From Bacillota bacterium (GTDB lineage Bacteria; Bacillota; UBA994), in assembly GCA_018333655.1 (NCBI GenBank), contig JAGXTJ010000034.1, positions 12,716 through 76,715 of the forward strand: 64,000 nucleotides of DNA, in the 5' to 3' direction. Under the pieces are notes generated by a model. That model saw only the letters and a list, made by a program, of their open reading frames with translations. It had not been told where the DNA came from and searched no databases. The position numbers were made by a program, and so were the translations under genes. Shown piece after piece: positions 4,333 to 58,295 of this stretch. The first letter of the stretch is position 1. Every line of letters starts with the position of its first letter.

Positions 4333-4911
4333 ATGAACTGCACTTGGGTCAAAAACAATCTCTGCGACATATTGGACGGTCTACTGCCTTCTGACACTGA
4401 GGAACAGTATCAGGAGCACTTGGCTGACTGTGCTGAATGCCGCATGTTGCTGGCAGAAATTGCTCTCGACCAGCAAGCCTTGACTAGTTTGCCCCGTGTG
4501 TCTCCACCCGCCGAACTGATTGCCGGTGTACTAAGCGCTATTCGCCAGCCTGTAAAAAAAGCTCTCTGGCCATTTTTTGCCCCTCGCTTTGCCCCTGTAG
4601 CCGCCGCGCTAGCGATTATGGTCCTAGGTCTCAATTTCTGGATGGCCTACTTTCCCCATCCGTCAGCGACTCGCGAATCGGCCCTGATTGAGACGCAGAT
4701 GGCGCCGCGCCTGTTTGTGGCCGGAGGCGAGGAACCGGATTCAGAAGCCCCTGCAGCGACGGACAAGAGAATGGGCACAGCATCGCTAGATGCCGCCAGC
4801 GAAAGTGCCCTGCCAGAGCGGCCCTCGTTCCTCCTTGTATCATCTGCGCTCGGTGGCAGTATTTTCGTGGTGTGGGGTGCCATCGTCTTAGTCTGGTATA
4901 AGCGTTCGTAG
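4333..4911 (+). CDS. Anti-sigma factor, zinc-binding ZAS type (RsiW-like), single TM
   Basis: Lies 5 nt after the sigma gene. Has the HxxxCxxC motif (HLADCAECRM), a central TM helix (PVAAALAIMVLGLNFWMAYF), and a C-terminal TM helix. Confidence 0.7.
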   Translation: MNCTWVKNNLCDILDGLLPSDTEEQYQEHLADCAECRMLLAEIALDQQALTSLPRVSPPAELIAGVLSAIRQPVKKALWPFFAPRFAPVAAALAIMVLGLNFWMAYFPHPSATRESALIETQMAPRLFVAGGEEPDSEAPAATDKRMGTASLDAASESALPERPSFLLVSSALGGSIFVVWGAIVLVWYKRS

Positions 4912-4933: not shown

Positions 4934-5013
4934 GCGACAGCGGGGACGGTTCTTTTTGTCGGTTTTTGCGACAAAAAGAACCGTCCCCGCTGTCGTGCCG
5001 TCCCCGCTGTCGC
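4934..5013. repeat. REP-like perfect palindrome, copy 1: 27-bp stem, 7-nt loop, plus a 16-nt partial duplication of the right arm
   Basis: gcgacagcggggacggttctttttgtcg-gtttttg-cgacaaaaagaaccgtccccgctgtcg, then tg-ccgtccccgctgtcgc. Starts 23 nt after the anti-sigma stop. Near-identical copy at 16926-16988. Confidence 0.85.
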
Positions 5014-5104
5014 TAATGTTGGGTAAAGTTTGCATACGCCCTTGTCGTGACATGGTAAAAGCATGTAATATTGTAACCAGAGCTAAGTTGTAAGGGGGTA
5101 TTTT

Positions 5105-10702: not shown

Positions 10703-10789
10703 GCCGAAGTGGTGGAACTGGCAGACGCGCTGCGTTCAGGGCGCAGTGAGTGAAAGCTCGTGTGGGTTCGAATCCCACCTTCGGCACCA
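10703..10789 (+). tRNA. tRNA-Leu (anticodon CAG), type II with long variable arm, CCA encoded
   Basis: Acceptor GCCGAAG/CTTCGGC. Anticodon stem-loop CTGCG-TTCAGGG-CGCAG. T-arm GGTTCGAATCC. Ends CACCA. Confidence 0.85.
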
Positions 10790-10817
10790 CTTACCTATTT
10801 TCAACGAGACATCAGCT

Positions 10818-10900
10818 GTCCGAGTGGCGGAACTGGCAGACGCGTACGTTTGAGGGGCGTATGGGAGACCATGTGGGTTCAAGTCCCACCTCGGACACCA
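10818..10900 (+). tRNA. tRNA-Leu (anticodon GAG), type II, CCA encoded
   Basis: Acceptor GTCCGAG/CTCGGAC. Anticodon loop TTGAGGG. T-arm GGTTCAAGTCC. Ends CACCA. Confidence 0.8.
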
Positions 10901-16925: not shown

Positions 16926-16988
16926 GCGACAGCGGGGACGGTTCTTTTTGTCGGTATTTGCGACAAAAAGAACCGTCCCCGCTGTCGC
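16926..16988. repeat. REP-like perfect palindrome, copy 2: 28-bp stem, 7-nt loop
   Basis: gcgacagcggggacggttctttttgtcg-gtatttg-cgacaaaaagaaccgtccccgctgtcgc. Stem identical to copy 1 (4934-4995); the loop differs by 1 nt. Starts 9 nt after the gerAC stop. Confidence 0.85.
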
Positions 16989-24797: not shown

Positions 24798-25976
24798 ATG
24801 CAAATTGCCGATCGCATTACGAGCATGCCCAAGTACCTGTTTGCAGAAATAGACAGGCTGAAGTGGGAGGCGCGGGCCAAGGGAGTCGACCTCATCAACT
24901 TGGGGGTGGGTGACCCAGATGTACCGACGCCGGATTTTATTGTCAATGCTATGGTTGATATTGTCAAAAATCAGCCTGCCACACATCAGTATCCGGAGTA
25001 CGATGGCGATCCAGCTTTTCGCCGCAGTGCCGCAGCCTACTTAAAAAAGCGCTTTTCACTCGATGTTCACCCTGACAAAGAGTTAGTAGCTTTGATTGGC
25101 TCCAAAGAAGGTATAGCCCATTTTGCTTTGGCGGTGGCAAACCCGGGTGACGTAGTTCTAGTGCCCGACCCTGCCTACCCAGTCTACTACATGTCGGCAG
25201 TTCTCGCGGGTGCCGAGCCATACCTTATGCCTTTGCTAGAAGAGAATGACTACCTGCCGGACTTTGCCGCCATACCCGCACACATACTGCGACGTGCCCG
25301 ACTAATGTACTTAAACTACCCCAATAATCCCACCGCCGCAGTGGCAGACCTGTCTTTTTTTGCTAAGGCGGTCGCTTTCGCCAAGGAACATAATATCGTC
25401 ATCTGCCACGATAACGCCTATGCCGAGATTACTTTTGACGGTTTTGTGGCCCCAAGCATACTGGAAGTACCGGGCGCCGAAGACTGCTGCATTGAGCTCT
25501 ACTCGCTGTCTAAGCCGCTCAACATGACAGGGTGGCGCATTGCTTTTGCCTATGGACAAGAGAAACTTATCGCGGCTCTCCGCAAGGTTAAAACGGCGAC
25601 TGACAGCGGGCCCTTCACGGCTATTCAGTTCGCGGCCATAGAGGGGTTAGCTAACCCCGACGCGACGATAGCCGGCATGCGCGATATCTATACGGCACGT
25701 CGTGACCGTGTTATCGCGCTGCTCAAGTCACTCGGGCTACCCTGTGCTTCGCCAAGGGCTTCGCTCTATGTGTGGCTACGAGTGCCAGAGCAGTTTCCTT
25801 CTTCGCAGGCCTTTTCCATGGCTCTTCTCGCTAGTCAAGGGGTAATTGTCTCTCCTGGCGTTGGTTTCGGGCAGTATGGGGAAGGTTACTTCCGCATATC
25901 GCTCACCACCCCCGATCATCGCCTCGACGAAGGACTCGAGCGCCTACGCAACTTCCTCTTAGAGAGCAAAAGTTAA
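24798..25976 (+). CDS. dapL: LL-diaminopimelate aminotransferase (DapL-type class I aminotransferase)
   Basis: KYLFAEIDRLK, LGVGDPDVPTP, LIGSKEGIAH, NYPNNPT, SLSKPLNMTGWRIAFA (PLP-Lys region). Closely resembles DapL sequences from memory. Confidence 0.7.
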   Translation: MQIADRITSMPKYLFAEIDRLKWEARAKGVDLINLGVGDPDVPTPDFIVNAMVDIVKNQPATHQYPEYDGDPAFRRSAAAYLKKRFSLDVHPDKELVALIGSKEGIAHFALAVANPGDVVLVPDPAYPVYYMSAVLAGAEPYLMPLLEENDYLPDFAAIPAHILRRARLMYLNYPNNPTAAVADLSFFAKAVAFAKEHNIVICHDNAYAEITFDGFVAPSILEVPGAEDCCIELYSLSKPLNMTGWRIAFAYGQEKLIAALRKVKTATDSGPFTAIQFAAIEGLANPDATIAGMRDIYTARRDRVIALLKSLGLPCASPRASLYVWLRVPEQFPSSQAFSMALLASQGVIVSPGVGFGQYGEGYFRISLTTPDHRLDEGLERLRNFLLESKS

Positions 25977-26007
25977 TTGGCTGCGGCTCTAACCATAGGT
26001 ATTTATA

Positions 26008-26043
26008 GGCTACCCCCACGCTACTCTAGGCGTGGGGGTAGCC
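26008..26043 (+). terminator. Terminator-like perfect 14-bp hairpin after dapL (U-tract replaced by intron insertion)
   Basis: ggctacccccacgc-tactctag-gcgtgggggtagcc. The intron 5' end GTGCG begins 3 nt later at 26047. Confidence 0.5.
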
Positions 26044-26046
26044 TAT

Positions 26047-27913
26047 GTGCGCCCGGCATGGGCGTTATCTCTAGGGTGAAAGTCCCGAACGGTGAAGGTA
26101 GCAGTAACCGTAGCTTAAGGCAAGGGTGTCCGCGGCGACGCGGAATCTGAAGGAAGCCGGCGGCAAACCTCTGGCCCGAGGAACACGAACCTCAAGTGAG
26201 GCTAGCGACAGGTGGATGAGTCTGCATAGTGAGACAAAGTCCTTGCTGCCAAAGTCTGTCGAGAGTAAATGAGGCGGGTAGATGGAGGGAAAGATAGCGC
26301 TCTTACCCGGGGAGACCTGCCAGCGTACCGACTAAGTTGGGAACTCGTACAGCAATGTGCGACTGAGCGGGCAGGAGTCAGCAGAGGCCATAGTACCCGC
26401 CTGCGGGGAAGGGCTGAACATGAAACGAGGTGAGCAAATGACAAGTTCGCGGAAAGAGCAAGGACAGCAGAAAACCCTTAACAGGGGCTCCTCACAGGAG
26501 GAAGTGGTGAATACACAGGGGACTGTGAGAGTGCAGAGCTCTTCCCCGGCACAAGTCAAGAGCTACACCTGCGGGACCGAGTATACCCTGCTGGAAGAGA
26601 TGTTGAAGCTAGATAACATGATGGCAGCCCTCAAGCGCGTAGAGCAGAACAAAGGAGCAGCCGGAGTAGATAAGGTAGACGTAAAATCCCTACGACCCTA
26701 CCTCAAAGAACACTGGCCTCGCATCAGAGGAGAGCTACTAGAGGGAACCTACAAGCCTCAGCCAGTCCGCCGAGTCGAAATCCCGAAATCCGACGGTGGC
26801 ATAAGGCTCTTAGGTATACCCACTCTAGTCGACCGTCTAATCCAACAGGGCCTCTCACAAGTTCTAACGCCAATCTTTGACCCCAGTTTCTCAAACAGTA
26901 GCTACGGCTTCAGGCCGAACCGTAGCACCCACCAGGCAGTCAAACAGGCAAAACAGTACATTGAGGACGGTTACAGGTACGTCGTTGACCTAGATCTGGA
27001 GAAATTCTTCGACCGAGTCAATCACGACATCCTAATGGCCCGAGTAGCCCGCAAGATCAAAGATAAGCGGATACTTGGACTCATCAGAGCCTACCTCAAT
27101 GCAGGAATTATGGCCAAGGGAGTATGCGTAAGAAGTGAACAGGGGGTTCCACAGGGTGGGCCACTTAGTCCAGCTCTATCGAATATAATCCTTGATGACT
27201 TGGATAAGGAGCTAGAGAGAAGGGGACACCGCTTTGTTCGTTACGCCGACGACTGTAATATTTACGTCAAGACGGAGCGAGCAGGGCAAAGAGTCATGGA
27301 GGGCGTAAAGAGATTTGTAGAGGATGAACTAAAACTCAAGGTCAACGAGCAGAAAAGTGCTGTTGACCGCCCATGGAAACGAAAGTTTCTAGGGTTCTCG
27401 TTCACAGCTGAGCGCAAAACACGTACACGTATAGCGCCCAAAGCCCGGGCAAGATTCGAGGACAAGGTGAGGGAACTCACCAATCGTTCGCGAAGCATGA
27501 GTATGGCGAAACGAATTGACCAGCTAAACGTGTACCTACGAGGATGGATGGGATACTTCTGCCTAGCTGACACGCGCAGCGTCATTGAGTCCCTAGACCA
27601 GTGGACTCGGCGACGCCTCCGTATGTGCTATTTAAAGCAGTGGAAGAAACCCAAAGCAGTCTACCATAACCTCGTCAAGCTTGGCCTAAGACCAGACTTC
27701 GCCAGAAACCTCAGTGGCTCAGGCAAAGGATACTGGCGATTAGCCAACACGCCGCAGATGAACATAGCCCTTGGTTTGGCCTTTTGGGCTAACCAAGGAC
27801 TATTGAGTTTGGTTCAGTTATATGACAAGCACCGTAGTGTTTCATGAACCGCCGTATACCGAACGGTACGTACGGTGGTGTGAGAGGACGGGGGTTAGTC
27901 ACCCCCTCCTACT
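26047..27913 (+). mobile_element. Group II intron, bacterial class C-like (inserted downstream of a terminator stem-loop); boundaries approximate
   Basis: 5' GTGCGCC at 26047. Intron-encoded RT ORF in domain IV. Domain V-like hairpin ccgccgtataccgaacggtacgtacggtgg at ~27856-27888. Domain VI-like stem to ~27913. Small size and no En domain in the IEP. Confidence 0.8.
26420..27847 (+). CDS. Group II intron reverse transcriptase/maturase (IEP)
   Basis: RT domains 0-7, including YADD (RFVRYADDCNIYV), and a maturase X domain (LRGWMGYFCLAD). ATG 26420 after GGGGAAGGG; the ORF-track 26357 start is probably too long. Confidence 0.9.
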   Translation: MKRGEQMTSSRKEQGQQKTLNRGSSQEEVVNTQGTVRVQSSSPAQVKSYTCGTEYTLLEEMLKLDNMMAALKRVEQNKGAAGVDKVDVKSLRPYLKEHWPRIRGELLEGTYKPQPVRRVEIPKSDGGIRLLGIPTLVDRLIQQGLSQVLTPIFDPSFSNSSYGFRPNRSTHQAVKQAKQYIEDGYRYVVDLDLEKFFDRVNHDILMARVARKIKDKRILGLIRAYLNAGIMAKGVCVRSEQGVPQGGPLSPALSNIILDDLDKELERRGHRFVRYADDCNIYVKTERAGQRVMEGVKRFVEDELKLKVNEQKSAVDRPWKRKFLGFSFTAERKTRTRIAPKARARFEDKVRELTNRSRSMSMAKRIDQLNVYLRGWMGYFCLADTRSVIESLDQWTRRRLRMCYLKQWKKPKAVYHNLVKLGLRPDFARNLSGSGKGYWRLANTPQMNIALGLAFWANQGLLSLVQLYDKHRSVS

Positions 27914-28014
27914 CGATTCACAGGCGAAATCTTCTTGCCACCAGCAGGAATAATTGTTCACAGGGCGAAGTAAAAGCTAGGACAAGCGAAGTATTTTGGA
28001 GGGGGGATTAAGGC

Positions 28015-29412
28015 GTGCTATCTAAACCGTTGCTAGAAGATGTCTTGCTGGCCGCACTCAGCACAGGAGGAGATTTTGCTGAAGTCTTTGTAGAAGATCG
28101 CTTCAGCACAACGCTCTCTATGGTCGGGGGCAAGGTGGACAGCGGTGTGTCAGGCCGCGACTATGGCATTGGCATTCGTATTCTCAAGGGAACAAACTAT
28201 GTCTATGCCTACACGAACGACTACGCTCGCGACAATCTCGTTAAGGTCGCGAAAGAGGCTGCGGCAGCTATACCTGGCCAGCTAGAGACAAGCGGACTCA
28301 CTTTGCGCTTTATGAAGGATGAGCCGCGGCAGATCAACCGCATCACCATCTATCCCCACGAGGTAGCCAAGGAGCGCAAGGTTGCTCTTATGACTCAGGC
28401 TTACCATGTAGCTAAAGGCTACGACCCAGTAATTTCTCAAGTTATGGTGCGTTACTTTGACGAAGACCAGAAAGTGCAAATTGCCAACTCTAGCGGTCTC
28501 TATGTTGAAGACCGCCGCGTGCGCACGCGCACGTCTATTACCGCCATTGCCTCTAAAGGGGCAGAAAAGCAGTCAGGGTTTTACGGCCCGGGTAGTCATA
28601 GGGGTTTTGAGTTCTACGATACTATTAACATCGACGATTACGCCCGCGAGGCAGCCAGAATAGCCACCACCATGATACACGCGCCTTATGCTCCTAGTGG
28701 GCGCATACCGGTTATTATCGACAACGAATTCGGCGGGGTTATTTTCCACGAGGCCTGTGGTCATAGCTTGGAAGCAACTTCGGTGGCCAAGAAGACGTCA
28801 GTGTTTGCGGACAAGTTAGGCGAAAAGATTGCCTCTGATGTCGTGAGCGCGGTGGATGACGGCACCATACCTAATGCTTGGGGCAGCCTCAATGTCGATG
28901 ACGAGGGGCATCTCTCACAGCGCAATCTACTTATTGAGAATGGTGTGCTTAAAGGGTACATGATCGACAAGTTTAACGGTCGCCGCATGAATATGCCTGC
29001 TACCGGCAATGCGCGTCGTCAGTCCTACAAGTTCGCACCTACCTCCCGCATGACGAACACCTTTATTTTACCGGGCAAAAGTACGCGCGATGAGATAATC
29101 GCGGCGACAGAATACGGCCTCTTCGCCCGCTACATGGGGGGCGGCTCGGTTAACCCAGCTACAGGCGAATTTAACTTTGCCGTCAATGAGGGCTACTTGG
29201 TCCGTAATGGCAAAATTGCCGAGCCGGTCAGGGGCGCTACTCTTATCGGCAAGGGGTCGGACGTGCTGATGTTAATCGACATGGTGGCAGACAATTTGGC
29301 CTGTGGGCAAGGTATGTGTGGCTCTATAAGCGGCTCTTTGCCTGCTGATGTTGGGCAGCCAACACTACGTGTCTCAGAAATGATTGTCGGTGGTAGAAAG
29401 GGGGACAAGTAA
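28015..29412 (+). CDS. tldD: Metalloprotease TldD
   Basis: HEACGHSLEA zinc motif; TldD/PmbA fold throughout. Confidence 0.85.
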   Translation: MLSKPLLEDVLLAALSTGGDFAEVFVEDRFSTTLSMVGGKVDSGVSGRDYGIGIRILKGTNYVYAYTNDYARDNLVKVAKEAAAAIPGQLETSGLTLRFMKDEPRQINRITIYPHEVAKERKVALMTQAYHVAKGYDPVISQVMVRYFDEDQKVQIANSSGLYVEDRRVRTRTSITAIASKGAEKQSGFYGPGSHRGFEFYDTINIDDYAREAARIATTMIHAPYAPSGRIPVIIDNEFGGVIFHEACGHSLEATSVAKKTSVFADKLGEKIASDVVSAVDDGTIPNAWGSLNVDDEGHLSQRNLLIENGVLKGYMIDKFNGRRMNMPATGNARRQSYKFAPTSRMTNTFILPGKSTRDEIIAATEYGLFARYMGGGSVNPATGEFNFAVNEGYLVRNGKIAEPVRGATLIGKGSDVLMLIDMVADNLACGQGMCGSISGSLPADVGQPTLRVSEMIVGGRKGDK

Positions 29413-30759
29413 GTGGAAGTGAGAGCATTCGTCGACCAACTCTTTGCTCTCGGTCATCGCCAAGGCTTTAGCGATATGGAGGCCTATGTGGCGATGCGCA
29501 ATCTCTTTCGCGTTGGGGTATTTAAGTCCGAAATAGATAGCTATACCCTAGCTGAGTCGCGCGGGCTGGCCTTTCGCGGCTTGATTAACGGCCGCATGGG
29601 GTATAGCTTTACCGAGAATCTGGCACTAGACTCCGTTAGAATGCTGGTCGAAGACGCCGCCGCCAATGCCTTGATTATTGACAGTGAAGACATAGAGGAG
29701 ATTTATAGCGGGGTTTTATCGGATACATACCACGAGCTAGACTCTTTTTCACCGGAGCTTGAAGAAGTGCCGGCGGCAGACAAAATAGCTTGGGCGAAAG
29801 ACTTGGAGCAAAAGGCCTATGCTTTGGATAGTAGGGTGTCCACCGTACAAGTCAGTATGGGCAACAGTTCTGGAGAGACGCGCATTATGAACACCCGGGG
29901 GTTAAATTTGGCCCACAAAGGAAACTTTGCCGATAGCTACATCGCGGTGGTGGCCAAGGAAGGTGACGACACTAAGAGCGCCTACGCCTTCTTCTCTTCG
30001 CGTGATTTCGCTAAGTTTGCGCATGCTGAACTAGCCAAAGAAGCGGTACAAGAGGCTACCTCTCTGCTTGGTGCCGAGTCAATTGCCTCTGGCACCTACA
30101 AGGTTCTCTTGCGGCACGATGTCGCTAGCGAGCTTCTCGCTACTTTTGCCTCATCCTTTTCTGCCGAGGCCGTGCAGAAAGGGCTCTCTCTCCTTAAAGA
30201 CAAGCTAGGTGAGGCCATCATGAGCTCGTCTATCACTATCATCGATGATCCCCTCCTCCCTGAACGGCCCAATTCTGCGCCTTTTGACGCCGAGGGCGTT
30301 GCCACCAAGACAAAAACAGTGGTGGGAGAGGGCAAGCTAGTTACTCTGCTGCACAATCTAAAAACGGCGAAGAAAGATGGCGTCGCCTCTACCGGCAATG
30401 CGCATAAGGCGGCGTTCAATGCCCCAGTAACAGTTGCCCCCACCAACCTCTATATTCAGGCGGGCGGCAAGGTGTACGCCGAACTCGTAGCAGAGTTAGA
30501 GAACGGCCTAGTAATCATCGCGGTGCAGGGTACTCATTCCGGTGCCAATCCTGTTTCGGGCGACTTTTCGCTGTCTGCCTACGGCTACCTAGTGGAGGAT
30601 GGCAAAGTAGTTCGCCCCGTCAACCAAATCACTATTGCGGGCAACTTCTTTGCTATGTTGTCAAATATTCAAGGTGTTGGCAACGACTTGCTGTTTAAGT
30701 ACGGTTCTGTGGCCTCCCCCTCCTTGCTTATCGGCTCTTTAGCCGTTTCTGGCAAGTAG
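29413..30759 (+). CDS. pmbA: TldE/PmbA protein
   Basis: PmbA/TldD family paralog directly after tldD (GYLVEDGKVVRPVNQITIAGN). Confidence 0.8.
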   Translation: MEVRAFVDQLFALGHRQGFSDMEAYVAMRNLFRVGVFKSEIDSYTLAESRGLAFRGLINGRMGYSFTENLALDSVRMLVEDAAANALIIDSEDIEEIYSGVLSDTYHELDSFSPELEEVPAADKIAWAKDLEQKAYALDSRVSTVQVSMGNSSGETRIMNTRGLNLAHKGNFADSYIAVVAKEGDDTKSAYAFFSSRDFAKFAHAELAKEAVQEATSLLGAESIASGTYKVLLRHDVASELLATFASSFSAEAVQKGLSLLKDKLGEAIMSSSITIIDDPLLPERPNSAPFDAEGVATKTKTVVGEGKLVTLLHNLKTAKKDGVASTGNAHKAAFNAPVTVAPTNLYIQAGGKVYAELVAELENGLVIIAVQGTHSGANPVSGDFSLSAYGYLVEDGKVVRPVNQITIAGNFFAMLSNIQGVGNDLLFKYGSVASPSLLIGSLAVSGK

Positions 30760-55149: not shown

Positions 55150-55941
55150 CTATACTGGGCGTCCCCTTACGGGCACCAGAGAGATTTGGGGGACGTTTTC
55201 ACTGGGGTGCGTAAATACTACTACTGGGCAGCCATAGACGGCCTCAATGAGCGGAGGACGCAGTACTTCTAGGGGAGTCCCCTTAGCAGTCAGTTCTCCC
55301 TGTGACAAGACCAAGAGTCGCTCACAGTATAGAGCGGCCAAGTTTATGTCGTGGAGTACCGTAATAATGGTCATGCCCTCTTGCGACAAAGACTTTAAGA
55401 GCGATAAGAGCTCCATCTGGTGCTTGATATCAAGATGCGCGGTCGGTTCGTCTAGCACGAGTAGGGGGCAGTCTTGGGCGAGGGCGGTAGCGATGCGCGC
55501 CCGCTGCTTTTCGCCGCCGCTCAAGGTGCTAAGGTGTCTACCCTCTAGGTCGATTATTCCCGCCTTGGCAAGTGCCTGATTGACCAGTTCCTCATCCCTT
55601 GGGGTCGCGCCCTGAAGTAGTGACTGGTGGGGTAGGCGGCCTAGGTGGGCCAGTTCTCGCACCGTTAAGTCGATGCCTAGCACACTCTCCTGTTCGACTA
55701 CCGCTAAGTGCTGCGCCATTGCTCGGTGCGAGAGCTTGGCCAGTGGGTAGCCAGCAAGCCACACCTCGCCACTTTGTGGGGTCAGCCAGCGGCTCATGAT
55801 TTTCACTAATGTCGATTTTCCGGAGCCGTTAGGTCCTATTATTCCGGTCAAAGTGCCTTTAGGGAACTCTGCGTTAATGTTCTTCAAGACAGGCCTATGG
55901 GCGAAACTAAAAGAAACATTAGAGATAACTAGCGGGTGCAT
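55150..55941 (-). CDS. ABC transporter ATP-binding protein (iron-siderophore/cobalamin type, FecE/BtuD-like)
   Basis: Walker A GPNGSGKST. Signature LSGGEKQR. Walker B LLVLDEP. Confidence 0.8.
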   Translation of the reverse strand: MHPLVISNVSFSFAHRPVLKNINAEFPKGTLTGIIGPNGSGKSTLVKIMSRWLTPQSGEVWLAGYPLAKLSHRAMAQHLAVVEQESVLGIDLTVRELAHLGRLPHQSLLQGATPRDEELVNQALAKAGIIDLEGRHLSTLSGGEKQRARIATALAQDCPLLVLDEPTAHLDIKHQMELLSLLKSLSQEGMTIITVLHDINLAALYCERLLVLSQGELTAKGTPLEVLRPPLIEAVYGCPVVVFTHPSENVPQISLVPVRGRPV

Positions 55942-56981
55942 TAGATCATCGCCTTTCGGCTTCTAGCAAGCAGGTATAAAAAGAAAGGTCCGCCCACCAA
56001 GGCCGTGATAATGCCAACTGGTAGCTCTGTCGGTCGCAGGATAAAGCGCGAGGCAATGTCAGCAGTGGTCATAAAAATAGCGCCGACCAAGGCGGAATAA
56101 GGCAGCAGGCGGCGATAATTTTCTCCGCCTAAAAGGCGTGCCATATGAGGAGTCATCAGGCCCACAAAGCCAATGACGCCACTGACAGCTACTGCGGCCG
56201 CTGTGAGCAGGGCGGTAGAACACAGGAGGAGGAAACGTACCCTTTCGACATTAACCCCCAGGTGATGCGCAGTCATGTCACCTAGGCTGATGGCCGTGAG
56301 GTAGCGGTGGTAGAAAAAAGCCAGCATGTATCCCGCTACAAGGTAAGGCGCCGCCAAAACTACATGGTGCCAGCCGCGTGCCGCAAAGCTACCCATTAGC
56401 CAGAAGAGCAGGGGATGGATTCTATTGCCGCTAAAGTATACCATGAGGGAAACTAGGGCCGAAAGAAAACTACTCATGGCTATGCCTGCCAGCAGTAACC
56501 CTAAGGTGGAACGGCCAGCTACGCGGCGGGCGAGCAGTAAGACGATGAGCAAAGTGACCACAGCGCCTATGAAGGCCATGGGTGTAATCGCGCCCAGCCC
56601 GAAGATGCTAAACTGCAAGCCAAGCAGCATGGCGGAGGCGGCCCCAAGACTAGCACCCGCCGAAACGCCCAAGATATGGGAGTCAGCGAGACCATTATGG
56701 AGAAGCCCCTGTAGGACGGCCCCTGCTGTGGCCAAGCCAGCGCCCACCATGGCGGCCAGTATTACGCGCGGCAGTCGTAGCCGAAAAATAACAATGGTTT
56801 CGTAGTCCCATTCTGTAGCCGGCTGGGACATTAACTGCACCAGGGCTGGCCCAAAACGGGCAGGGGCGATATCTACCGCCCCCAGCACCATGCCAGCAAG
56901 CATTACGAGCGCCAAAACTAGGGAGAGGGTGACGACTAGTCGCCCTCTCTTTAATTTCTCTACAACCCTGACTAACGCCAT
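55941..56981 (-). CDS. FecCD-family ABC permease (BtuC/FhuB-like)
   Basis: About 9-10 TM, FecCD-like. 1-nt overlap with the ATPase gene. Confidence 0.8.
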   Translation of the reverse strand: MALVRVVEKLKRGRLVVTLSLVLALVMLAGMVLGAVDIAPARFGPALVQLMSQPATEWDYETIVIFRLRLPRVILAAMVGAGLATAGAVLQGLLHNGLADSHILGVSAGASLGAASAMLLGLQFSIFGLGAITPMAFIGAVVTLLIVLLLARRVAGRSTLGLLLAGIAMSSFLSALVSLMVYFSGNRIHPLLFWLMGSFAARGWHHVVLAAPYLVAGYMLAFFYHRYLTAISLGDMTAHHLGVNVERVRFLLLCSTALLTAAAVAVSGVIGFVGLMTPHMARLLGGENYRRLLPYSALVGAIFMTTADIASRFILRPTELPVGIITALVGGPFFLYLLARSRKAMI

Positions 56982-57874
56982 AAGTCGGGGTGAAGTAGCC
57001 TGGCCATCTCGCGCAGGCCCAAGGCTAGGCGCGGACCTGGGCGCAGTACAAGGTCTTCGTTGACCAGGTAGACGCGATTGTTTGCTATAGCGGGCACAGT
57101 CTCCCAGTTCGCCCTTTGCTTAATGGCCTCCACAGTCTCTGGGCCATGCCCACGGAACATGACAGTTGGCTTTTGGGCCAGTATTTCTTCCAGTGACAAA
57201 ACGGGGAAGTTGGTGGCGGCGTTGCTAGCTAGGTTGATTCCGCCTGCCCGCGTGATGAGCTCATGGATAAAGGTATTGGGTCCGGCACTGGTGATAGGGT
57301 CATGCCAGATCTCAAAGTAGACCAATGGACGGCTGCCCTCTGCTAACCCCCGCGTCTTTTCCTCCACTTCGCGCATGGCAGCGGTCAGTTCCTGCTCAAT
57401 GGCTTGCGCTTGCCTTGTAGTACCTGTGGCCTGGCCCAAAAGGGCGGCGTTAGCGATTACTTGAGCAATGTTCTTGGGGTCTACAGCGAGAACCGGAATG
57501 TTTAACTGCTCTAGTTGTTCTACGACAGCCTGGTGCAGGCTAGCGGCAACGACTAGATCAGGCTTTACGCTGACAATTTTTTCTACCGAGGGGGGGCCAA
57601 AGCCGCCTACCTTTTCTTTGGTCTGTGCCAGAGCGGGATAGTTACAAAATTCAGTTACGCCCACAATTTTGTCACTTAGGCCGAGGGCAAAAAGCAACTC
57701 CGTGGTGCTTGGAGCCAGAGAAACGATGCGTACCGCCGGTTTCTCGAGGGTGATTTGGCGCCCGAAGTCATCCGTTAGGACGATAGGTCTTTGAAAAAGT
57801 GCTGTGATGGGTGCACAGCCGGCCGCAACAAGCGCCAGAATGGCGATTAGGGCCAACAGGGAAAGTTTTTTCAC
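56972..57874 (-). CDS. Periplasmic-binding-protein-type SBP for cobalamin/iron-siderophore (BtuF-like lipoprotein)
   Basis: Lipobox LVAAGCAP. Cluster A-II SBP fold. Sits downstream of a cobalamin riboswitch. Confidence 0.75.
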   Translation of the reverse strand: MKKLSLLALIAILALVAAGCAPITALFQRPIVLTDDFGRQITLEKPAVRIVSLAPSTTELLFALGLSDKIVGVTEFCNYPALAQTKEKVGGFGPPSVEKIVSVKPDLVVAASLHQAVVEQLEQLNIPVLAVDPKNIAQVIANAALLGQATGTTRQAQAIEQELTAAMREVEEKTRGLAEGSRPLVYFEIWHDPITSAGPNTFIHELITRAGGINLASNAATNFPVLSLEEILAQKPTVMFRGHGPETVEAIKQRANWETVPAIANNRVYLVNEDLVLRPGPRLALGLREMARLLHPDLWR

Positions 57875-58019: not shown

Positions 58020-58245
58020 AGGGGGCCCCCCATGGCTCTGACCCAGTCCCCTCGACCGAAGGACGGTGTCTGCATCGTGGGGGCAGGTCTCCTGGCTCTG
58101 GGATTCGCGCGCCCGGCTCCTTCCCGTCTGCTACTAGAGACAGTGGTCTTGCCGGGTACTACCCATTACAGTGGCGGGACCGCTCAGGACTTTAACCTGA
58201 TTCCCTTTTAATCCCCACAAACGGGGAACCTCCACAAAGGCTATT
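58020..58245 (-). promoter_or_regulatory. Cobalamin (AdoCbl) riboswitch
   Basis: Minus-strand reading contains AAGGGAATCAGGTTAAAGTCCTGAGCGGTCCCGCCACTGTAA (B12 box GCCACTG, + coordinates 58169-58175) and downstream GGGAAGGAGCCGG...CAGGAGACCTGCCC. Matches the cobalamin riboswitch consensus from memory. Confidence 0.7.
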
Positions 58246-58295
58246 TAATTGCACTACAAGTATAGCACATAAGGACATCGCGCAAAAGCTAGTCT

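Follow-up and report, generated by a model that had tools for sequence, protein, structure and literature searches.

A recently mobile class C group II intron behind a stem-loop between dapL-type and tldD-type genes of an uncultured Bacillota lineage

INTRODUCTION

Group IIC introns have been known since the mid-2000s to lie behind terminator-like hairpins. One of the closest described systems is GsI-IIC, an intron of Geobacillus stearothermophilus and the source of the GsI-IIC RT (PDB 6AR1), which PMC3683930 refers to as a group IIC intron RT. For exon recognition, B.h.I1 of Bacillus halodurans serves as the model IIC intron (PMC1702495). Hallmarks of the class are a domain V with a CGC instead of an AGC triad and a distal stem reduced by 2 bp relative to IIA and IIB introns, and an 11-nt ε′ bulge with a conserved AGGAA motif (PMC1702495). 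A further system of known structure is the intron-maturase complex of the IIC intron of Eubacterium rectale (PDB 7UIM and others).

Here we describe an intron in a 64-kb stretch of DNA (64,000 nucleotides; the window in what follows). An initial annotation, made from the letters of the sequence, had proposed a compact class C intron between dapL and tldD, inserted after a terminator-like stem-loop. Rfam models, the IIC hallmarks, the EBS1–IBS1 pairing and the matches to IIC RTs all agree with this proposal, and we put at about 95% the probability that a bacterial class C (IIC) group II intron, intact and recently mobile as a retroelement, occupies positions 26047–27917 of the window. We report the identity and anatomy of this intron, its exact boundaries, its EBS1–IBS1 pairing, its hairpin-linked choice of target and its recent mobility.

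The intron protein resembles that of GsI-IIC in having an RT, a thumb/X region and a short C-terminal domain, and in having no endonuclease. It differs by an extra N-terminal extension of ~49 amino acids, which is common to many class C relatives but not to the Bacillaceae-type ones, and the host belongs to a different, uncultured Bacillota lineage. With B.h.I1 the intron shares the compact ribozyme, the CGC triad, the shortened domain V, the AGGAA bulge, an EBS1–IBS1 pairing of 3–4 bp and the lack of EBS2. The likeness extends to the stem-loop, which in B.h.I1 lies 3–11 nt upstream of the splice site, and to the occurrence of several genomic copies behind different terminators. Unlike in B.h.I1, the stem at the dapL site reaches the splice site and holds IBS1, the distance being 0 nt when counted from the 17-bp stem and 3 nt when counted from the 14-bp core, which is rich in G+C. 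The dapL-site stem also differs in having no U-tract.

RESULTS

Genomic setting and exact boundaries

The intron occupies an intergenic site. Upstream of it lies a gene for a dapL-type LL-diaminopimelate aminotransferase (24798–25976, + strand, 392 aa; NF006756 554 bits, cut-off 507; Pfam Aminotran_1_2). The genes downstream are a TldD/PmbA-family pair (28015–29412 and 29413–30759, + strand). Both contain all three Pfam PmbA_TldD domains; with the NCBIfam TldD and PmbA models they stay under the equivalog cut-offs. Given a GC skew that is positive throughout the window, the + strand orientation of the intron fits, as we read the literature, insertion into the lagging-strand template. A near-identical MAG carries the label Thermaerobacter sp.; given this label, the host may be a thermophile.

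The boundaries were determined by comparison with empty sites. Nineteen metagenome contigs were collected by way of the DapL protein, and 18 of these have the uninterrupted site GCCTAT/TCACAGG (the slash marks the point of insertion). Flank identity was 99.7–99.9% in the seven contigs compared. The filled allele is represented, for example, by ENA ERZ27300239. It is unlikely that the empty contigs are assembly deletions, because at least 15 independent samples yielded them. Alignment of the filled and the empty sites defined an insert of exactly 1871 nt (26047–27917, + strand), in keeping with the ~1.87 kb estimated initially. BLAST break points, Rfam matches and copies of the intron elsewhere delimit the same complete group IIC intron. 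The junction alignment leaves an ambiguity of 1–2 nt, (A)T, which is settled by the GUGCG start, the terminal AU and the existence of relatives whose 5′ exon ends with C, G or A. The 5′ splice-site consensus GUGCG extends from 26047 to 26051 (+ strand), so the GTGCG start had been placed correctly from the outset; at the aligned position relatives start with GTGCG, GTGTG or GTACG. Sequence comparison and Rfam searches detected the intron, whole or in part, nowhere else in the 64-kb window.

Ribozyme domains

Of the six domains of a group II ribozyme, domains I–III and V–VI are recognisable with Rfam models, and the models for domain I (RF02001), domains II–III (RF01998) and domains V–VI (RF00029) all score above the Rfam gathering threshold on the intron. 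The domain I core (26129–26301, + strand) matches the full RF02001 model with 133 bits (E = 2.6e-27). In this alignment the 11-nt ε′ bulge AUCUGAAGGAA, which contains AGGAA, is unpaired (26145–26155, + strand). Domain II, the J2/3 linker and domain III (26341–26414, + strand) were assigned from the RF01998 match (64 bits) and the consensus fold. In the consensus fold of 56 related 5′ halves compensatory double changes occur in 67 of the 85 pairs.

At the 3′ end RF00029 matches positions 27847–27917 with 45 bits. The match confirms the domain V/VI-like region previously placed at ~27856–27913, although the claimed end was 4 nt short: the intron ends with CGAU, the last base being 27917. Domain V (27848–27879, + strand) is defined by the RF00029 alignment and by an alifold of 32 relatives with compensatory changes. 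It has a CGC triad at 27850–27852, a 2-nt bulge and a distal stem of only 3 bp (ACC/GGU), which appears as a four-column deletion relative to the RF00029 consensus. The triad and the short distal stem are conserved and covarying among the 32 relatives, in which domain VI covaries as well. Domain VI (27881–27915, + strand; RF00029 alignment and consensus fold) contains the predicted bulged branch-point A at 27911. All IIC hallmarks of PMC1702495 were found: the CGC triad with the short domain V, the AGGAA bulge, a 4-bp EBS1–IBS1 pairing and a stem-loop replacing IBS2.

Exon recognition

According to the Rfam alignment, positions 26220–26235 (+ strand) form the EBS1 hairpin, GUCU[GCAUAGUG]AGAC. 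EBS1 itself, AUAG (26226–26229), pairs over 4 bp with IBS1, CUAU. In the DNA, IBS1 (CTAT, 26043–26046, + strand) makes up the final 4 nt of the 5′ exon and lies within the 3′ arm of the stem. At the EBS1 loop positions, at least 3 bp are paired in 28 of the 33 distinct intron/exon combinations of relatives, whose sequences differ; shuffled controls averaged 5 and reached at most 12. The covariation across relatives supports the proposed EBS1–IBS1 pairing. The two features on which the initial annotation had staked its claim, domain V/VI and an EBS/IBS pairing (AUAG/CUAU), are thus both present.

An EBS2–IBS2 interaction is absent. Positions −5 to −12 are unrelated among the seven 5′ flanks in which this same intron occurs, all of them falling within hairpin arms, and neither the Rfam nor the alifold structure contains a second terminal loop in the domain I d region. 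The earlier suggestion that the stem is used in place of IBS2 is borne out by these seven sites, which have a hairpin and no common IBS2. The predicted IBS3 is the T at 27918 (+ strand), the base with which the 3′ exon begins, and T occupies this position in all six distinct 3′ flanks of the intron. A candidate for EBS3 is the conserved A of the GA bulge at 26218–26219, directly 5′ of the EBS1 stem. Covariation between EBS3 and the first base of the 3′ exon was sought in 24 relatives and gave no signal, because nearly all relatives carry T as this base.

The hairpin at the insertion site

The target stem-loop in the 5′ exon (26005–26046, + strand) is a perfect 17-bp inverted repeat with an 8-nt loop. 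It begins 29 nt past the dapL stop codon, and its arms (26005–26021 and 26030–26046) make up the third longest perfect inverted repeat in the 64 kb. In the initial annotation the hairpin was described as a perfect 14-bp repeat at 26008–26043, with the intron starting 3 nt downstream. The arms of this 14-bp core, GGCTACCCCCACGC and GCGTGGGGGTAGCC (26008–26021 and 26030–26043), are indeed exact, and the 3-nt distance is true of the core. The full repeat, however, has 17 bp, and because this perfect stem contains IBS1, the intron abuts the stem directly. The arm sequence recurs nowhere else in the window and therefore does not represent a repeat family there. The RNA fold of the hairpin has an energy of −43 kcal/mol (z = −4.9), and none of 200 shuffled sequences was as stable. 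An identical hairpin is present in the empty sites.

As in a terminator, a G+C-rich stem-loop follows shortly after the stop codon, but the T/U run is missing. The absence of the U-tract had been noted correctly, together with the idea that the intron had separated the stem from its T-run, which found no support. The empty site had been expected to consist of the hairpin plus a T-tract. In the 18 contigs it reads hairpin-TAT/TCACAGG, and no T-run follows the stem, the sequence being stem-TCACAGGCG, or TATTCACA if counted past the 14-bp core. Because intron-less strains read hairpin-TAT-TCACAGGCG without a T-run, the insertion did not cost the hairpin a U-tract. A terminator consensus scan of the empty site did not call the hairpin; its sole hit was a weak hairpin lying 32 nt farther downstream. 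Judged by these sequences, the dapL stem-loop has never been a canonical intrinsic terminator. The proposal that dapL termination now depends on the intron or host context finds no support, since the empty site lacks a T-run and the scan did not call this stem-loop.

The intron-encoded protein

The RT/maturase is encoded in domain IV (26438–27847, + strand, 469 aa; TIGR04416, RVT_1, GIIM). The YADD codons are at 27242–27253, and the TIGR04416 score of the protein is 433 bits (cut-off 300). A profile search of the intron protein yielded no match to HNH or any other endonuclease domain, only RVT_1 and GIIM matched, and the protein terminates ~50 aa past GIIM. The description of an RT/maturase with YADD and without an endonuclease was accurate. 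An alternative ATG at 26420 would give 475 aa. The start at 26438 is favoured because the ~49-aa N-terminal extension is conserved; many relatives have an ATG at −46 to −52. A 496-aa reading from a GTG (26357) and a short one from the ATG at 26600 were also considered and rejected: in contrast to the 475-aa and 469-aa readings, they are absent from the protein collection.

An ungapped alignment over 413 aa gives 61% identity with the GsI-IIC RT, with which the protein is collinear to the C-terminus. Among PDB entries the GsI-IIC RT ranks highest (576 bits), followed by the E. rectale IIC maturase (390 bits) and the RT fragments 5hhl and 5hhj (~298 bits), and lower in the ranking are LtrA (146 bits) and 6me0, a 562-aa maturase RT (124 bits). 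The E. rectale maturase matches over its full length and with the same domain order. It is a more distant relative, and its chain is without the N-terminal extension: the match begins at its residue 5, which corresponds to residue 56 of the 475-aa reading. The 61% identity to the GsI-IIC RT strongly implies that the intron protein belongs to class C, an assignment made by similarity.

Other copies of the intron

The same intron, with 0–1 nt difference in 1871, recurs at no fewer than six other sites, each behind a hairpin. This number is an estimate for which the 5′ and the 3′ flanks were counted separately, because several of the intron-bearing metagenome contigs are evidently chimeric across the intron repeat (in contigs L103 and L110 the 5′ flank of one site is joined to the 3′ flank of another). 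There are seven distinct 5′ flanks, in each of which the hairpin ends 0–7 nt upstream of the intron, and six distinct 3′ flanks, every one starting with T. At the other sites the 5′ exon ends with TTAT, ATAT, GTAT or AATT, and all that the seven insertion sites share is the hairpin and YUAU/U. These other sites are ordinary hairpins with T-rich tails, located after unrelated genes; one copy resides inside a prophage, where the terminase gene lies on one side and the portal gene on the other. In the copy that follows CTAATT (L102), just one of the three terminal exon positions can pair with EBS1, which reflects either loose specificity or an assembly quirk. A hairpin is found upstream of ~50 of the 55 distinct relatives, usually with a T-run. 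The closest curated plasmid and phage DNA is ~60–70% identical to the intron, the best matches (~70%) being on Alicyclobacillus plasmids.

The near-identical copies at other sites, together with the empty alleles, characterise the intron as a recently active retroelement. From filled and empty alleles at 99.7% identity or above, and from near-identical copies at seven or more sites, we infer that the intron is probably self-splicing and retromobile.

DISCUSSION

Endonuclease-less proteins also occur in classes D, E and F (PMC4424553), and an intron of one of these classes, with a IIB-like ribozyme, would home to a specific sequence and not to stem-loops. We consider such an assignment very improbable. 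Domain V has CGC, not AGC, and a distal stem of only 3 bp; the IIC-specific AGGAA bulge was found; EBS1–IBS1 comprises just 3–4 bp, and the seven sites are alike only in the hairpin and YUAU/U. The nearest solved proteins (576 and 390 bits) are all IIC RTs. Within class C, the IIC-attC subgroup inserts into attC sites of integron cassettes. Imperfect inverted repeats are targeted by these introns too (PMC4424553), and some of the more distant relatives have a common repeated GCCGCGCCAGCGGCTTCGTT-like target. The target described here, however, is a perfect, unbulged 17-bp hairpin directly past a housekeeping gene, no integrase match was obtained for any gene within ~4 kb on each side, and elsewhere this intron follows ordinary hairpins with T-rich tails, located after unrelated genes. 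Membership in this subgroup seems even less probable than that in class D, E or F.

Decayed copies are frequent among bacterial group II introns, and the element might be a fixed, immobile relic or a domesticated RT that merely resembles an intron. The chance of this is very small: the ribozyme domains and RT motifs are all intact, the alignment to the GsI-IIC RT is free of gaps over 413 aa, presence of the intron is polymorphic among strains whose flanks are at least 99.7% identical, and the copies at seven sites or more differ by 0–1 nt. The least credible reading, to which we assign a negligible probability, is that the RT belongs to a retron, a DGR or an anti-phage defence system. Matches to retron and Drt models do exist, but they are weak (at most 86 bits) and far under the cut-offs (235 for the best retron model, at 86 bits), whereas the group II intron RT/maturase equivalog scores far over its own. 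Moreover, a GIIM maturase domain is present and the ORF lies within a complete ribozyme.

For the mobile class C intron, the following mechanism can be proposed by analogy with the IIC family. Transcription of dapL probably continues past the stem-loop, which lacks a U-tract, and enters the intron, whose RNA would fold to a compact IIC ribozyme with domains I–VI. The RT/maturase encoded in domain IV would bind the intron RNA and promote splicing, in which the bulged A27911 would serve as branch point; the predicted ligated exon junction is GUAGCCUAU/UCACAGGCG, also written GGGGGUAGCCUAU/UCACAGGCGAAAUC. The excised RNA-protein particle would pick DNA sites by a stem-loop, a 3–4-nt IBS1 (YUAU) and T as the first downstream base, and the IBS1 of the new site would pair with the AUAG of EBS1 (26226–26229). 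The intron RNA would reverse-splice into the chosen strand. Since the protein is without an endonuclease, the DNA copy would be made from a primer supplied by replication. These steps are modelled, except for the last, which is observed: the insertion lies between genes, therefore neither coding sequence is damaged.

For biology at large the finding carries little weight, since the intron shows all features of a class that is already known. Its modest value is that of a clean natural example, for which many near-identical strains provide the exact empty site. Seven or more sites of a sequence-identical intron define the target as a hairpin, a 0–7-nt spacer ending with YUAU, then U. That one of these sites is without a U-tract supports the stem-loop, not terminator function, as the recognised feature. 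The protein could interest enzyme engineers on account of its 61% identity to the GsI-IIC RT, a thermostable enzyme in commercial use, and of its possibly thermophilic host.

A more far-reaching interpretation is offered tentatively, and we regard it as rather unlikely: the dapL site may represent insertion of a IIC intron into a non-terminator stem-loop, possibly within a co-transcribed dapL-tldD-pmbA unit, with phage as a vehicle for spread. If the three genes are co-transcribed, the intron-bearing minority strain would need read-through and splicing to express the downstream protease genes. The prophage copy between terminase and portal genes would, if this holds, make phage a vehicle of intron spread. 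Together with the abundant empty-site strains, the locus would then amount to a natural experiment on the target rules of IIC introns and on their cost to the host.

Boundaries of the intron

Empty sites were sought among contigs encoding the window DapL (LL-diaminopimelate aminotransferase) or a member of its cluster with at least 90% identity (n=19). In 18 of the 19 the gap between dapL and the downstream TldD/PmbA-family gene, tldD, is 167-168 nt, as against 2038 nt in the window, and the empty-site junction reads ...GCGTGGGGGTAGCCTAT/TCACAGGCGAAATC.... BLAST comparison of seven contigs (six with empty sites and the filled one) gave 99.7-99.9% identity over ~5.2 kb on the upstream side and as much as 3.9 kb on the downstream side. 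The filled site, in ENA ERZ27300239, is 100% identical to the window. In the six empty-site contigs the alignment breaks at 26046 and 27916-27917, which defines an insert of 1871 nt. By itself the alignment is ambiguous by 1-2 nt, (A)T, a point settled by relatives whose 5′ exon ends with C, G or A immediately before GTGCG. Starting with GUGCG and ending, as Rfam defines it, with ...CUCGAU, the intron therefore extends from 26047 to 27917 (+ strand), 4 nt beyond the end (27913) proposed in the initial annotation.

Ribozyme structure and exon recognition

Three Rfam group II models matched the + strand above their gathering scores, in agreement with the original intron call: RF02001 (domain I core, 26129-26301, 133 bits), RF01998 (domains II-III, 26341-26414, 64 bits) and RF00029 (domains V-VI, 27847-27917, 45 bits). 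The features that distinguish IIC ribozymes were listed by Toor et al. 2006 (PMC1702495), and all are present in this intron. In domain V (27848-27879) the triad is CGC (27850-27852) and the distal stem, ACC/GGU, has 3 bp; the RF00029 alignment shows a 4-column deletion relative to the general model. The distal stem covaries among 32 relatives (ACC/GGU, ACG/CGU, GCG/CGC). The epsilon′ bulge is the unpaired 11-mer AUCUGAAGGAA (26145-26155), and in domain VI (27881-27915) the bulged A is nucleotide 27911, with CUCG and then the terminal AU 3′ of it. In the consensus fold of 56 related 5′ halves, 67 of 85 pairs show compensatory double changes. Excluding the ORF, the ribozyme comprises only ~460 nt.

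The EBS1 hairpin GUCU[GCAUAGUG]AGAC (26220-26235) presents AUAG (26226-26229), which is complementary to CUAU, the final four exon bases (26043-26046). Loop and exon end co-vary in aligned relatives (GCAA-TTGC, ACAA-TTGT, TAAA-TTTA, TGAA-TTCA). At least 3 bp of EBS1-IBS1 are paired in 28 of 33 distinct intron/exon combinations among the relatives, whereas shuffling the exons among the introns (2000 trials) gave a mean of 5.0 and a maximum of 12 such combinations; the pairing expected at the proposed 5′ boundary was thus found. IBS2 is impossible, because the identical RNA occurs behind sequences that are unrelated at positions -5 to -12. The first base of the 3′ flank is T in all six distinct flanks. 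With hardly any variation at this position, EBS3 could not be fixed from the relatives; by analogy, a candidate is the conserved A in the GA bulge that immediately precedes the EBS1 stem on its 5′ side.

The intron-encoded protein

The ORF of the intron-encoded protein (IEP) lies between the Rfam matches and ends at 27847. Its only Pfam matches are RVT_1 and GIIM, and the YADD codons are at 27242-27253. Among proteins of solved structure the IEP is closest to GsI-IIC RT (576 bits, E = 6e-172), followed by the E. rectale IIC maturase (390 bits), two RT fragments (5hhl and 5hhj, ~298 bits), LtrA (146 bits), a 562-aa maturase RT (6me0, 124 bits) and a Cas6-RT-Cas1 fusion (122 bits). The alignment with GsI-IIC RT (61% identity over 413 residues) has no gaps and extends to the C-terminus, leaving no room for an endonuclease domain; the initial annotation had recognised none either. 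A retron or defence RT was considered and rejected: the top retron model (cut-off 235) scored 86 bits and every Drt model less, whereas the group II intron RT/maturase equivalog of NCBIfam (cut-off 300) scored 433 bits.

Readings of 469 aa (ATG 26438) and 475 aa (ATG 26420) are both found as called proteins in public assemblies. The 475-aa reading is conserved from residue 56 onwards. Bacillaceae-type relatives have the conserved Met itself as their start. Many class C relatives have an open frame of ~50 weakly conserved codons upstream of the conserved part, with an ATG at -46 to -52, which favours ATG 26438 as the probable start; GAGGTG is located 5 nt upstream of this ATG. The resulting N-terminal extension of ~49 aa (26438-26584), rich in S, Q, K and E, precedes RT motif 0. 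It is absent from GsI-IIC RT and the Bacillaceae relatives but common to many class C proteins of Acidobacteriota, Proteobacteria, Clostridia and Alicyclobacillus.

The target hairpin and dapL termination

The sequence preceding the intron (26005-26046) is ATAGGCTACCCCCACGC-TACTCTAG-GCGTGGGGGTAGCCTAT, and GTGCGCCCGGC... follows from 26047. The 14-bp arms noted initially are exact and unique in the window, but the perfect inverted repeat is 17 bp long (26005-26021/26030-26046), the third longest hairpin of the 64-kb window. The intron starts 3 nt from the 14-bp core and 0 nt from the full stem. As RNA the hairpin has a predicted stability of -43 kcal/mol (z = -4.9), equalled in none of 200 shuffles. 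It had been suggested that the intron parted this stem from its U-tract and altered dapL termination. This idea is unsupported, since in empty sites the stem runs into TCACAGGCGAAATC and a consensus terminator scan did not report it, its only call there being a weak hairpin of 7 bp, 32 nt further on (27932-27950). The dapL hairpin does not qualify as a canonical terminator, and this is not the intron's doing. More likely, some transcription passes the hairpin, which would also supply intron RNA.

The small hairpin at 27932-27950, in the tldD leader, is bracketed by a direct repeat, TTCACAGGCGAA/TTCACAGGGCGAA (27917-27970). The intron insertion point is the exact start of its first copy, and the prophage target described below likewise starts with TCACATGG. 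The repeat may have a regulatory role or may be coincidental.

The window also contains two copies of a perfect 27-28-bp hairpin (CGACAGCGGGGACGGTTCTTTTTGTCG, a 7-nt loop and the reverse complement) at 4935-4995 and 16926-16988, each just past a + strand ORF (ending at 4911 and 16917); a further, incomplete arm occupies 4996-5015, behind the first copy. The two copies appear to represent a palindromic repeat element of terminator-like form. Neither copy has an inserted intron, and the element is missing from all 111 fetched loci. Other features are a cobalamin riboswitch (RF00174, 116 bits, 58065-58248, - strand) upstream of minus-strand ORFs (55150-57874), and two neighbouring tRNA-Leu genes (anticodons CAG and GAG; 10703-10900, + strand).

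Insertion sites and mobility

The exact IEP was also found on 13 further contigs, where the intron DNA differs from that of the window by 0 or 1 nt, which indicates recent mobility. In several contigs, among them L103 and L110, the 5′ and 3′ flanks come from different sites; these are evidently assembly chimeras across the repeat, and the two kinds of flank were therefore counted separately. Counting 5′ flanks gives seven sites, of which dapL is one. The other six comprise a prophage site (L100 1535-3406; also L101 and L104) with a 100% identical intron, one that follows a small acid-soluble spore protein gene, one that follows an SLH-domain gene, and three more. A hairpin is present at every site. 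Its stem ends 4-7 nt before the intron, closer (3 or 0 nt) only at dapL. Most of the other sites have T-rich tails, and a hairpin with a T-run precedes the great majority of 55 distinct relatives in sequenced genomes. The exon ends at the seven sites are TTAT (three), CTAT, ATAT, GTAT and one poor AATT.

The prophage copy is located in a phage or prophage structural module, after a 213-aa gene, and has the large terminase gene on one side and the genes for the portal, a ClpP-type protease and the capsid on the other; its target is a canonical hairpin with the tail TTCTTAT. Phage may carry the intron from host to host. In contig L107 the 3′ end of the intron is joined to its own sequence from 27806 on, which implies a nested insertion into the IEP ORF of another copy. 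The nested target (27772-27805) is an 8-bp hairpin, CCTTGGTT...AACCAAGG, with ACTAT, and fits the target rule of the other sites, with CUAU after a hairpin and U as the next base.

Head-to-tail arrays of related IIC introns occur in L027 (3446-9091), L021 and L025. Of the three copies in Alicyclobacillus sp. ALC3, the second and third are each inserted immediately after the ...CUCGAU end of the copy before; there the role of target stem-loop appears to be taken by domain VI and that of IBS1 by GAU. A subgroup of more distant relatives (L064, L070, L059, L071, L051, L055, L067, L074) has the 5′ end GTGTGCTG, and all are located behind a similar motif, ...GCCGCGCCAGCGGCTTCGTT; this points to a target that is repeated or attC-like, not to a mixture of terminators.

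Proposed mechanism and class assignment

In the mechanism we propose, read-through transcription from dapL would be followed by folding of the IIC ribozyme, translation of the RT/maturase from domain IV and protein-assisted splicing. The RNA-protein particle would then recognise the stem-loop, YUAU and U, and reverse splice into DNA. As the IEP has no endonuclease, cDNA synthesis would be primed by replication, a route summarised for endonuclease-less introns in PMC4424553. GC skew is positive throughout the window and the intron is on the + strand, an orientation that would fit entry into the lagging-strand template; the argument is weak because the host genes share the same bias.

By every defining feature that could be tested the element is a IIC (class C) intron: the Rfam models, the IIC hallmarks, the EBS1-IBS1 covariation and the GsI-IIC RT match agree. 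The initial interpretation thus held for class, identity and setting, and was amended on three points: where the intron ends, how long the stem is, and the idea about the U-tract. The intron is neither an attC-type IIC intron nor a member of classes D-F. GsI-IIC is its closest characterised relative, and the nearest curated DNA, ~70% identical, is on an Alicyclobacillus plasmid. The family was already known, and the intron described here is a further IIC example.
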